From an uncultured Bacilli bacterium (GTDB lineage Bacteria > Bacillota_I > Bacilli_A > RF39 > UBA660), in contig CAJUKM010000001.1 of the NCBI GenBank assembly GCA_910587535.1, positions 17,496 through 81,495 of the forward strand: a DNA stretch of 64,000 nucleotides, given 5' to 3'. Position 1 is the stretch's first letter; each line of letters begins with the position of its first letter. The position numbers and the translations under genes were made by a program. Below, piece by piece: positions 26,522-29,740 of this stretch. Below the pieces are notes generated by a model. That model had not been told where the DNA came from. It worked only from the letters and a program-made list of their open reading frames with translations, and did not search any database.

Positions 26522-28132
26522 TTAAGAGTTTATTTTATTTTGTATAGGTTTTAGTGCTCTTCCCTTTTCTACTCCATCTAATTTCCAACGATAATCTTTA
26601 AATGTTTCTACTTTATCTTTAAAGTCTTTTATGCTATCAAAATTTATATCTGCCTCTCGCATTATATCATTTAGTAGTGGGAATCGATTTTGCAGTTTAA
26701 ATAGGTCTACTGCATCACTACCCGAGGCACTAATAGAAGAGGCGATATCTTTTAAATCCTGTTCTTTTATACTGTAAGCTTCGGATAAGAAGCGATAAAA
26801 TACTCGATCGATTGCATCGACTCCAGATAAAAATGATTCATCATACCAAAAGACGTTTCCGAAACCTTCAAGAGGCGTCAATATCAGACTTCCTGCCTCT
26901 GTAACAGTCATGGATTTAGCTATATTATATAAATATAGACCTTCTTCAACAGTATAAGTTTTGTCTTCATTTATTCTAGTAATTATATCTCCAACTGCCG
27001 TTTTAAAGATACTCAAATAACAGGCATTTCCTATAAATTGGTTGATTTCAGATCTCAACATAGGGATGTATCCCAATTCATCATATACTTTTTTTAGAGC
27101 TTCGTCACTAGATGCTCTTACGTCTAGGGCATATGCTGTTTTATAGAATTCTATTATATCGTTTTCATCTTTTAGTCCGAAAAAGGCATGTAGTTTTTGT
27201 AGATCGGCACTGAAAATACTATTATAGTAGTTATCTAGGTTTCTATCTTCTTTAAAAGCGGCCTTTAATAAAAGCATTCTTTGACTTTCCTTTTTGTCTG
27301 TTGACCACGAATAAAAGTCCGGGATATTTATCTGATTGCCTGCGAGATAATCTTCTACTTGGGTAATACTTGAAATATCTAGAATGTTGGAAAGAGCAAC
27401 GTCTATTTGAACACTAGTTAGTTGTTGCCCTTTTTCTTTTTGACAACTGCATGCTTCCGTTCTAATCTTATTAAACTGAGACGCGATGAGTGCAGCCAAA
27501 TAATCGGATTCTTCACTCCATTCCCTATTGCCATTTTTTAGAGTCTTTGATAGGAATTCTCTTACACATTGAGTGTAATCTATGATAAGAGTAGAAGTAT
27601 TTCTATCGAAGACAATAGCAGAAAAATTACCTGTCGATCCCAAAGCAATTTTGATGTCTTTCAATACACAAATATCATCTTTAGGATTTTCATTTTTTTC
27701 AAATACTATATCTAAAGCTTTCTTTAAAGCTTCTCTAAAAAGTCTGTCTTCGAGATTTTTTTCGCCCGTTATTTTATCAGACGCATGATAGAAGGGACTA
27801 TTTTGTGAATTACCTAAAATGCTATTTTCAATTATGATATCCGATAGACTTCTGTAATCTGTGATTTCGCCATCACATTCTAATAAAGTCAAGTCTGTTT
27901 CCAGTATTTTTCGAAGTTCTTCTTCGTTCAGATAAGTGTTAGCGTTTCTAAAGTCTACCTCTATTTTTTTTAATTCTTCGAGATATAAACTACAGTTATC
28001 GAATCTAGGATTTATCTTTTCAGTTGTTTCAGTTTCTTTAGTGAAATCTTTTTCTTTTGTCTTTGGAGGCATTACTATCAAAGACAAAAGAATAATCATA
28101 AATGATATGCCAGTTTTAATCGATCTTCTCAT
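26522..28132 (-). CDS. secreted/membrane-anchored hypothetical protein (536 aa), paralog B of tandem pair
   Basis: N-terminal signal anchor. It is collinear with 28157..29740 and shares DDICVLKDIKI/EDICRLKDLRI, ACSCQKEKGQ/QCSCRIEKGQ and LLLKAAFKEDR/LMLLQAAFKKDR blocks with it. Confidence 0.7.
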   Translation of the reverse strand: MRRSIKTGISFMIILLSLIVMPPKTKEKDFTKETETTEKINPRFDNCSLYLEELKKIEVDFRNANTYLNEEELRKILETDLTLLECDGEITDYRSLSDIIIENSILGNSQNSPFYHASDKITGEKNLEDRLFREALKKALDIVFEKNENPKDDICVLKDIKIALGSTGNFSAIVFDRNTSTLIIDYTQCVREFLSKTLKNGNREWSEESDYLAALIASQFNKIRTEACSCQKEKGQQLTSVQIDVALSNILDISSITQVEDYLAGNQINIPDFYSWSTDKKESQRMLLLKAAFKEDRNLDNYYNSIFSADLQKLHAFFGLKDENDIIEFYKTAYALDVRASSDEALKKVYDELGYIPMLRSEINQFIGNACYLSIFKTAVGDIITRINEDKTYTVEEGLYLYNIAKSMTVTEAGSLILTPLEGFGNVFWYDESFLSGVDAIDRVFYRFLSEAYSIKEQDLKDIASSISASGSDAVDLFKLQNRFPLLNDIMREADINFDSIKDFKDKVETFKDYRWKLDGVEKGRALKPIQNKINS

Positions 28133-28156
28133 TTTTCCCCTTCCTTCTTAGTTTTT

Positions 28157-29740
28157 TTAATTTTTAATTGGTTTAACTATCATGTTTTTAGGAGATTGTG
28201 CTTTTTTAGGCGCAACTTCTTCTTCAAACAAAACGACTTGATATTCATGCACTTCGTGACTTTTTTGGACGAATGCTAGCACAGGGAAAAGTTGACGCAG
28301 TTTAACTATGTCTATTCCTTCTATAGGACTTAAATCATCGCCTGTTACCAAACAATCAAAATCTTTTATTTGATTTTTTAGTCTTTCTAACTCGTTTGCA
28401 TCGATATCGAAATAAGTGCAGATAAAATCATAGAATATGCTATCGACTTCTCTTACCGTCTGTACTAATTGCTCGTCATAAACTCTTTCATATTCAGAAT
28501 CACCTTTTTTATGTGGAAACTTAGACTCATCAAGGATCTGGCATTTTAGAAAATTGTATAAATACATTACTTCTTCCTTTGTAAGATCTTCTCTGATAGA
28601 TGCATCTATTAGATCTTTTGCGCTGGATTTTAGAATAAGTTCAAGTGGAACGCTTTTTATCGATGAATAGATTCGGGTAAGTGTATCTGTATTTGTTTCA
28701 CCTTCTAAGACAAGCTCAGCAGGGTATAATGTATCATTAAATTGAAAATATTGATAGAGAGCATAGCCAGTTTTATAAAATTCTCTAATTTTTCCGTCTG
28801 TGTTTAAATCATAAAAAGAAAAATATGCTTGTGTGTCACTATTGAAGACTGCATCATAGTAGGACTCCATAGTTCTATCTTTTTTGAAAGCTGCTTGTAA
28901 CAGCATTAAGCTTTCTGTTTTTGTTTCTTCTTTAAAATCGAAAGCTAAAGGATCCTTGTTTAGCGCTGCAATCTGCTCTGTATTTTGGGCAAGAGATTCT
29001 GCAGGTCCATCTAATAGAAACATAAAGTCATCGCTAGCTATTATTCCTGAAGCTGTTTGCCCTTTTTCGATACGACAACTACACTGAACTTCTCTAGCAA
29101 AATTTAACAATGTTACGAATATCTTTATAAAATATTGATCGCAGGACCAAATCATCTCTTCTTCTTGCCAAAATTCATTATACATTTGCAAATAACGCAT
29201 AATATAACCGTAATTGATCAATATACAATTCTCTTTTTGGAAGTATACGGCTAGACGTGTCAAATTAGAACTAATGCCTATTCTAAGATCTTTTAAACGA
29301 CAGATATCTTCTCTTTCGTCACCTATTGGATTAGTAAATATGATTTCTAGCGCTTTTCTCAAAGAGGTCTCTAACGCAGTAGTCATTTCTTTTAATTCAG
29401 GTTTTCCTAATAAATTTTCTTCATCATAAAATGCAGGACTATAGTTTTCTCCAGCTACCTTCGAATTGTCGATAATTATGTCTATTAACTTCGTCCAATC
29501 TGTATCGAGACTATCGCAAGTTTCTACATTAGCAGCAGCTTCGATGAAAACATCTAGATCTTCATTTAGCTTGCTGTCATTTTCTAAATGATAAGTAGTC
29601 TCTAACATCTCTATTCTTTCTAAAAATGCAAAATGGTCAAAGTTTTGATCATCTTCACTGTTAACTTCCAATTCTTTTTTGGGTGCACTACACGCTGTCA
29701 TCATGAGAGCCATCATGAACGCTAAAACTCTTTTTCTCAT
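28157..29740 (-). CDS. lipoprotein hypothetical protein (527 aa), paralog A of tandem pair
   Basis: Signal peptide with lipobox (MMTAC). Its start overlaps the truA stop by 4 nt (ATGA). Confidence 0.7.
   Translation of the reverse strand: MRKRVLAFMMALMMTACSAPKKELEVNSEDDQNFDHFAFLERIEMLETTYHLENDSKLNEDLDVFIEAAANVETCDSLDTDWTKLIDIIIDNSKVAGENYSPAFYDEENLLGKPELKEMTTALETSLRKALEIIFTNPIGDEREDICRLKDLRIGISSNLTRLAVYFQKENCILINYGYIMRYLQMYNEFWQEEEMIWSCDQYFIKIFVTLLNFAREVQCSCRIEKGQTASGIIASDDFMFLLDGPAESLAQNTEQIAALNKDPLAFDFKEETKTESLMLLQAAFKKDRTMESYYDAVFNSDTQAYFSFYDLNTDGKIREFYKTGYALYQYFQFNDTLYPAELVLEGETNTDTLTRIYSSIKSVPLELILKSSAKDLIDASIREDLTKEEVMYLYNFLKCQILDESKFPHKKGDSEYERVYDEQLVQTVREVDSIFYDFICTYFDIDANELERLKNQIKDFDCLVTGDDLSPIEGIDIVKLRQLFPVLAFVQKSHEVHEYQVVLFEEEVAPKKAQSPKNMIVKPIKN

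Follow-up and report, generated by a model that had tools for sequence, protein, structure and literature searches.

What are the two proteins whose genes separate truA from rplM in an uncultured Bacilli bacterium, and what might they do outside the cell? The question arises from a 64,000-nucleotide stretch of contig CAJUKM010000001.1 (assembly GCA_910587535.1), here called the window, in which two consecutive genes, paralog A and paralog B, lie between the tRNA-modification gene truA and the ribosomal protein gene rplM. An initial annotation made from the DNA letters had proposed that A and B represent a novel extracytoplasmic family, perhaps binding-protein-like, duplicated within a core operon that also carries degenerate energy-coupling factor (ECF) ATPases. 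Our analyses suggest that they are tandem, anciently duplicated members of a surface family of proteins of about 500-590 residues, most of them lipoproteins, and that they are probably, if by no means certainly, inactive pseudo-enzymes of a putative metallopeptidase family, predicted to act as non-catalytic surface binders or scaffolds. Both open reading frames (ORFs) lie on the minus strand at the coordinates initially given, and the genes of the locus are as follows.

31100-31885, minus strand: ecfA-like gene (EcfA-like protein, 261 residues), from the ORF and Pfam/NCBIfam
30477-31109, minus strand: ecfA'-like gene (EcfA'-like protein, 210 residues), from the ORF and Pfam/NCBIfam
29737-30480, minus strand: truA (PF01416, E 2.6e-30), the stop codon of which overlaps the start of A (ATGA)
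28157-29740, minus strand: paralog A, an ORF of 527 residues (family profile E 2e-111), a predicted lipoprotein lacking HExxH
26522-28132, minus strand: paralog B, an ORF of 536 residues (family profile E 2e-107), with a signal anchor and lacking HExxH
25962-26411, minus strand: rplM (PF00572, E 7.5e-49), directly downstream of B
25534-25950, minus strand: rpsI, an ORF 3' of rplM

A and B are diverged homologues, as first annotated: BLASTP aligns them end to end and collinearly (565 columns, 27% identity, E 5e-43), well above chance, and the blocks E/DDICxLK, xCSCxxEKGQ and LLLxAAFKxDR..YY are present in both. Their N-terminal sequences also bear out the initial assignment of a Cys lipobox to A, a signal anchor to B and an extracytoplasmic location to both. 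The N terminus of A (MRKRVLAFMMALMMTAC, followed by Ser) has a basic n-region, a hydrophobic core and, at residues 13-17, the lipobox MMTAC ending in Cys17, in agreement with the pattern [LVIM][ASTVI][GAS]C of bacterial lipoproteins, i.e. substrates of Lgt and Lsp.

29690-29740, minus strand: signal peptide and lipobox of A (Cys17), from reading of the sequence; Cys is present in 73% of the family at that column

The N terminus of B, MRRSIKTGISFMIILLSLIVMPP, comprises MRRSIK, 15 hydrophobic residues and then PPK, with neither a Cys nor an AxA-type (small-residue) cleavage site in this segment, and reads as an uncleaved signal anchor. There are no further hydrophobic segments in either protein and the mature parts of both are acidic. 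A would thus be held by lipid and B by its uncleaved signal peptide, with both proteins facing outward.

Neither A nor B matched a domain in Pfam or NCBIfam, PADLOC returned nothing for either, PHROGs gave only signal-peptide noise, and searches of PDB sequences with both profiles gave chance matches only, consistent with the initial view of a candidate novel family without a known domain. Word-indexed searches, using A, B and a 119-sequence alignment, gave only near-identical proteins and one relative of 27% identity, P0003. The family came into view with an exhaustive hidden Markov model profile search, which, using A, B and P0003 as queries against 1.84 billion cluster representatives (clusters at 50% identity), identified 230 representatives at E<=1e-3, 122 of them at E<=1e-30, nearly all of which are 480-600 residues long and matched over their full length. 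A and B themselves match the full-length profile and have the conserved positions Y50, C75, IxxNS, EDxC, N213, R216, CxC-R, YY and FP. All members inspected come from metagenome assemblies of uncultured, low-GC 'Bacilli/Tenericutes', and carry public names such as 'hypothetical protein [Bacilli bacterium]' and nothing more informative. The taxonomic breadth of the family is poorly sampled, given that a scan of the species-representative genome set, made with a narrow pattern, gave a single locus, in a metagenome-assembled genome labelled 'uncultured Tenericutes bacterium', and that two metagenome scans gave zero and two loci. A tblastn search with the family member P0004 gave no match in plasmid and phage collections, which argues that, within those sets, the family is not mobile-element cargo. 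Nothing relevant to the HELNH motif described below was found in the literature and, with neither a curated model, a structure nor a name, the family appears to be undescribed.

Analysis of column conservation, for which 143 full-length representatives were used (ligand patterns and the tree being derived from the 119-sequence alignment), reveals what most members have in common and what A and B have lost. In the numbering of A, the conserved positions include the lipobox Cys (73%), Y50 (90%), C75 (90%), I89-x-x-N92-S, E144-D145-x-C147, the motif H210-E-[LI]-N-H214-x-R-Q (H 85%, E 84%, N 88%, H 85%, R 90%), C220 (98%), C222, R223, Y294-Y295 (about 95%) and P486 (95%). Some 85% of the full-length representatives have HExxH, always 5 residues before the CxC (HE[LI]NHxRQ..CxC), and is followed about 30 residues later by E244-x-S-A-E248-S (84-89% conserved), with a Glu 34 residues past the second His. 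Neither A nor B has the HExxH by which zincin/gluzincin metallopeptidases (clan MA) are recognized, and B has also lost the later Glu, as the corresponding positions show.

29099-29113, minus strand: residues 210-214 of A, TLLNF, at the HE[LI]NH position (alignment columns 825-829), all three catalytic/ligand residues being gone
27467-27481, minus strand: residues 218-222 of B, SQFNK, the degenerate HExxH position, from the alignment
28994-29011, minus strand: residues 244-249 of A, DGPAES, the counterpart of ExSAES, with E248 kept, in a predicted helix (241-252)
27362-27379, minus strand: DISSIT of B, the counterpart of ExSAES, with the Glu lost and Ile at the E248 position
29075-29083, minus strand: C220-S-C222 (CxC) of A, of the conserved cysteine set
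29516-29518, minus strand: C75 of A, part of the four-ligand cysteine set
29300-29302, minus strand: C147 of A, part of the four-ligand cysteine set
27443-27451, minus strand: CSC motif of B, from the alignment

About 35 family-wide positions are kept in both A and B, including N213, R216, the four cysteines, R223, YY and FP. HExxH is missing from 23 members of the 119-sequence alignment; 17 of these, A and B included, group in a single nested clade or grade of the neighbour-joining tree, five others comprise a four-member clade and the neighbouring P0135, and P0055 branches by itself, a distribution that implies repeated loss from an HExxH-bearing ancestor. The residues now occupying the lost motif positions vary among clade mates and among the orthologues of A and B, which argues that no substitute catalytic set has evolved. 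Together with the anchoring of the two proteins, the loss of the motif makes it most likely that A and B are catalytically dead pseudo-peptidases facing outward from the membrane. The clade in the truA-rplM slot would then have lost the catalytic His-Glu-His while keeping the cysteine cluster and the residues that define the fold.

Structure predictions are consistent with a gluzincin-type core. The AlphaFold2 model of A, made using the 119-sequence alignment, has a predicted local distance difference test score (pLDDT) of 88.3 and a predicted template modelling score (pTM) of 0.87; it begins with an N-terminal helical segment followed, in order, by three strands (153-156, 164-167 and 172-175), a helix (177-190), a second helix at the HExxH position (200-216), a third at the ExSAES position (241-252), and a C-terminal domain, helical with a single hairpin. 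The model of the corresponding domain of the HExxH-bearing P0003 (residues 59-312; pLDDT 95.1, pTM 0.93) has the same order of elements. A sheet, a backing helix, an HExxH helix and a Glu helix constitute the canonical zincin/gluzincin layout of clan MA. We thus propose that the N-terminal domain of the family may be built from a sheet of three strands and a backing helix, followed by the active-site helix, in which HE[LI]NHxRQ lies, and by a further helix with ExSAES, ahead of a helical C-terminal domain. Foldseek searches with the whole A model gave no significant match in PDB or in the BFVD viral library, the sole compact match being with the minigluzincin selecase (probability 0.44; template modelling (TM) score 0.55, normalized to the target). 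With the P0003 domain model, the top nine of the (weak) PDB matches were all to anthrax lethal factor, with collagenase T, PepO, IRAP and YbeY further down. On the basis of the motif, the topology and these coherent but non-significant fold matches, we think it fairly probable that the family is zinc-peptidase-like, of the gluzincin type.

The initial annotation had drawn attention to paired cysteines. They are indeed conserved, but they behave as a four-ligand metal site rather than as disulfide pairs. Over the 119 sequences the four Cys columns read CCCC in 64, CHCC in 28, CCCH in 15 and CCC(D/E) in 4, with a few odd cases besides; one Cys is swapped for His, Asp or Glu with the other three kept, and no sequence has His at both 147 and 222. 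Single swaps without paired loss point to four ligands of a metal rather than to two disulfides, the partners of which should be lost together. The Cys3(Cys/His) cluster, which adjoins the predicted core, is therefore most likely a structural metal site. Elsewhere in the family, genes for proteins of about 182 residues precede those for P0003 and P0004 (L001 2641-3189 and L005 7385-7936). The L001 protein has a signal peptide, a C-terminal transmembrane anchor and the sequence CEHC, and matches the Pfam Glutaredoxin and Thioredoxin_2 models at 24 bits each, a hint that redox processing might act on the conserved cysteines of the family; the 183-residue L005 protein has no Pfam match.

Comparison of related genomes reveals that the slot between truA and rplM is recurrently occupied by the family. 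It holds two copies in the window (and in strains L002 and L015), in L003/L004 and in L010, and one copy in L009 and in L016/L017, none of the copies having HExxH; in all five of these related lineages ecfA-like, ecfA'-like and truA genes precede the family gene(s). This recurrence disposes of the possibility, which the initial annotation named as a refutation, that A and B could be lineage-specific fillers without conserved synteny. Among the five lineages the ribosomal proteins L13 and S9 are 92-96% and 87-98% identical, TruA 58-69%, the EcfA-like protein 55-70%, the EcfA'-like protein 34-53%, and the family proteins 22-41%. Position and fold are conserved while the sequence is diverging very fast, as is expected of exposed surface proteins. 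A and its counterpart in L003 are reciprocal best matches (35%), the A-type copies of L003 and L010 are likewise 35% identical, A itself is less similar to that of L010 (28%), and B is closest to the B-type copy of L003 (41%); these A-to-A and B-to-B matches across lineages indicate that the duplication predates the lineages. The A-type copies have a lipobox and the B-type copies have none, a distinction that recurs in L003 and L010.

Other members occupy quite different loci. P0003 and P0004 are encoded before rplI-dnaB and after the secreted thioredoxin/glutaredoxin-like CxxC membrane protein; a tandem pair, both with HELNH, lies upstream of a methyltransferase gene and rpoB-rpoC (L013 809-4059, and also L014); and further members lie between eno and proS, next to trpS, and before LOG/znuA/ffh. 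Thus the family as a whole, and not its HExxH-less clade alone, tends to duplicate in tandem and to insert among core genes. The linkage to degenerate ECF ATPases, by contrast, is confined to one clade.

That linkage bears on the initial suggestion that A and B are binding-protein-like. The upstream ATPases are degenerate, as was first noted: with 111 bits, the 261-residue EcfA-like protein falls short of its cut-off of 315, and the 210-residue protein has no ABC_tran match above threshold. By eye, the former keeps the Walker A motif (GTSGSGKST) and has LSKEQ for LSGGQ, D-N for the Walker B D-E and Asn for the H-loop His; the latter is without a Walker A motif. The same pair of genes occurs at L003 4226-5607, L009 4798-6224, L010 3845-5253 and L016 3855-5263, and its conservation in five lineages despite this degeneracy suggests that it has been retained, possibly in a role other than transport.

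Might A and B then be the solute- or substrate-binding components of a transporter or mechanotransmission module built on the degenerate EcfA/EcfA' pair? The order ecfA-ecfA'-truA-[family gene(s)]-rplM is kept in five lineages, the genes overlap or abut so that co-transcription is likely, and both proteins face outside. The ancestral Firmicute order, seen for instance in Bacillus subtilis, is ecfA-ecfA'-ecfT-truA-rplM, and insertion of family genes into this pre-existing cluster accounts for the linkage. Moreover, there is no ecfT between the ATPase pair and truA, and no EcfT, S-component or permease gene adjoins A and B; Foldseek, Pfam and NCBIfam give no substrate-binding-protein signal, the A model being mostly helical; B has a cytoplasmic part of just about 6 residues for contact with an ATPase; and ECF transporters are not known to use proteins such as A and B. 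Co-occurrence with the degenerate ATPases, which the initial annotation had suggested following up, holds in the five truA-rplM lineages but fails for the members near eno/proS, rpoB, rplI-dnaB, trpS and znuA/ffh, where these ATPases are lacking. A transport role of this kind consequently seems to us very improbable. Nor do we think it at all likely that A and B are decaying relics, i.e. former peptidase genes that persist by chance or through constraints of operon polarity, a view to which the loss of the catalytic motif, the very fast divergence relative to the neighbours, the lineage-dependent copy number of one or two, and the further loss from B of the ExSAES Glu and the lipobox Cys do lend some weight. 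Intact full-length ORFs are present in all five lineages, across TruA identities of 58-69%, and about 35 family-wide positions, signal sequences and ribosome-binding sites are retained; in addition, the AlphaFold2 model is confident. At the strain level the ratio of nonsynonymous to synonymous substitution rates (dN/dS) is below 1, being 0.27 for A and 0.51 for B (0.30 for truA), values that rest on 17 substitutions in A and 9 in B, too few to be more than compatible with constraint.

The proposal that A and B are pseudo-enzymes derived from zinc peptidases has evidence to contend with, beginning with that small number of substitutions (9-17). The matches of the P0003 domain model have E values of 0.25-6 and TM scores of about 0.25-0.37, the best (E 0.25) having a probability of 0.23 and a TM score of ~0.25, and none is significant. 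By hhalign, lethal factor aligns with the family over just the motif helix, at 0.5% probability. Pfam and NCBIfam peptidase families go undetected even among HExxH-bearing members, ten of which matched no Pfam model, of a peptidase or otherwise. Finally, the thioredoxin-like CxxC membrane protein adjoining the HExxH-bearing P0003 and P0004 fits disulfide chemistry of the cysteines equally well. A check of fold by Foldseek, as suggested initially, has accordingly assigned no well-characterized fold, its weak gluzincin matches falling short of significance.

These points leave some room for a family that is no metallopeptidase at all, in which HExxH belongs to another metal-dependent or structural site, perhaps together with the cysteines, and of which A and B are variants able to do without it. 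Searches by sequence and by fold matched no peptidase significantly; C220 lies exactly 6 residues past the second His, the spacing at which the third ligand occurs in the metzincin motif HExxHxxGxxH, so the site could be unconventional; and HExxH has been lost independently two or three times with the protein being kept. An HExxH helix that comes behind a sheet and backing helix and has a helix with a conserved Glu some 30 residues on is nonetheless the gluzincin signature, and zinc peptidases alone form a coherent group within the weak fold matches, for which reasons we judge this alternative unlikely, if worth bearing in mind. Under the pseudo-peptidase reading, A and B would bind peptide or protein ligands, or act as scaffolds, rather than cut, possibly working as a pair, with the four-residue Cys/His cluster beside the core holding a structural metal ion.

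How the pair may be expressed is indicated by signals in the DNA. As initially annotated, the stop of truA and the start of A overlap (ATGA), and a GAGGAG ribosome-binding site lies upstream of A; B starts 24 nucleotides after the stop of A and has a ribosome-binding site of its own, AAGGAAGGGG. Given the overlap, co-transcription of A (and B) with truA is plausible. Two promoter-like sites are present.

29942-29969, minus strand: sigma-70-type consensus TTGACA-16-TATAAT (12/12), inside truA, about 200 nucleotides upstream of A
26478-26506, minus strand: promoter-like TTGACT-17-TATAAT (11/12), between B and rplM

The consensus within truA recurs at the same codons in L010 (5761-5788; 12/12) and in L003 (truA codons 171-180; 11/12). 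It is thus common to the three tandem-pair lineages (the window, L010 and L003), and has no match in the two single-copy lineages. It is a possible promoter for A and B, and its conservation could also stem from shared ancestry and from AT-rich Ile codons or Ile/Asp codon usage. A and B may therefore be expressed with truA by translational coupling and, possibly, also from the truA-internal promoter. The site between B and rplM is likely to be rplM-rpsI's own promoter; no terminator-like site was found after B on the gene strand. Two in-frame ATG codons could start the rplM ORF, giving 149 or 143 residues; public gene calls and orthologues begin at METFMQ (26393), 85 nucleotides 3' of the promoter-like -10 hexamer.

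The window as a whole is a low-GC (about 32%) chromosome segment that spans oriC. On its minus strand are dnaA (58925-60346), dnaN, gyrB and gyrA, and on its plus strand rnpA and yidC; the replication origin lies at about 60350-60920, with a sign change in GC skew at ~60 kb. A and B are on the leading strand, about 31-34 kb from oriC, and the sporulation-type genes yabG, spoVG, yabP and divIC are nearby. Between rpsI and tilS-ftsH (20835-24801, minus strand) lie an AIPR gene, of the abortive-infection type, and a gene for an 877-residue BspA-type leucine-rich-repeat protein. In L016/L017 tilS-ftsH comes directly after rpsI, and in L003 other genes stand at that spot, so that the AIPR and BspA genes look like a lineage-specific insertion at a variable site. 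Two ORFs of similar size to A and B were considered as hidden paralogs and rejected: that of 511 residues at 13197-14732 is an AbgT transporter, and that of 541 residues at 35065-36690 (minus strand) has an hhalign probability of 0.3% against the family. The latter protein has no Pfam match; its N-terminal part is long and coiled-coil-like, and the protein has two hydrophobic segments.

Comparison with known systems helps to place the family. With the gluzincin peptidases of MEROPS clan MA(E), such as lethal factor (M34), clostridial collagenase (M9) and selecase, most members share the HExxH helix, the later Glu helix and the preceding sheet and backing helix; they differ in a two-domain architecture for which we found no match and in the extra Cys3(Cys/His) cluster, the scores being non-significant, and A and B differ further in lacking HExxH and, in the case of B, the Glu. 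There is precedent for catalytically dead peptidase homologues that serve as regulators or binders in the degenerate LytM factors of the EnvC/NlpD type. By analogy with these, A and B are extracytoplasmic and membrane-associated, with a metallopeptidase-type fold (as predicted) from which metal ligands have been lost and which persists under selection; unlike them, they are unrelated to the M23 fold of EnvC and NlpD, and no amidase or FtsEX-like membrane partner was seen for A and B. A further analogy is with the variable surface lipoproteins of Mollicutes and reduced-genome Bacilli, which likewise have lipoboxes, occur as tandem paralogs, diverge fast and are scattered among housekeeping genes in a narrow, host-associated lineage; here, however, repeats or phase-variation tracts were not seen, and the A/B family has a conserved, enzyme-like core. 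The ECF module EcfA-EcfA'-EcfT is a genomic neighbour, its ancestral order still recognizable, yet neither A nor B has homology to an ECF component, the locus is without ecfT and both ATPases are motif-degenerate.

At the superfamily level the family thus most likely belongs to a well-known kind, the zincins, pseudo-enzyme derivatives of which are a familiar theme, and the finding has no bearing on a long-standing open question. A bolder proposal, which we advance only tentatively and with appreciably less confidence than that of a pseudo-enzyme origin, is that these metalloprotease-like surface lipoproteins, restricted to uncultured host-associated Bacilli, form a structurally novel family whose truA-rplM clade has become a pseudo-enzyme pair, one partner lipid-anchored and the other held by a transmembrane anchor, stabilized by the Cys3(Cys/His) site and with a new, non-catalytic role. 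The pair could, for example, form a heteromeric surface receptor or adhesin, or regulate active paralogs. In a more extreme version, it could be functionally coupled to the motif-degenerate but likewise conserved EcfA/EcfA' pair that is without EcfT.

If our reading is correct, the results define a new putative zinc-peptidase family of about 230 clusters, confined to uncultured gut-type Bacilli and with neither a curated model nor a solved structure. They would also provide a clean natural example of the conversion of an enzyme to a pseudo-enzyme, long maintained in a fixed slot beside ribosomal protein genes. For the biology of these organisms, presently accessible through metagenomes only, the family would bring annotation to hundreds of 'hypothetical proteins' and supply candidate surface antigens or adhesins.

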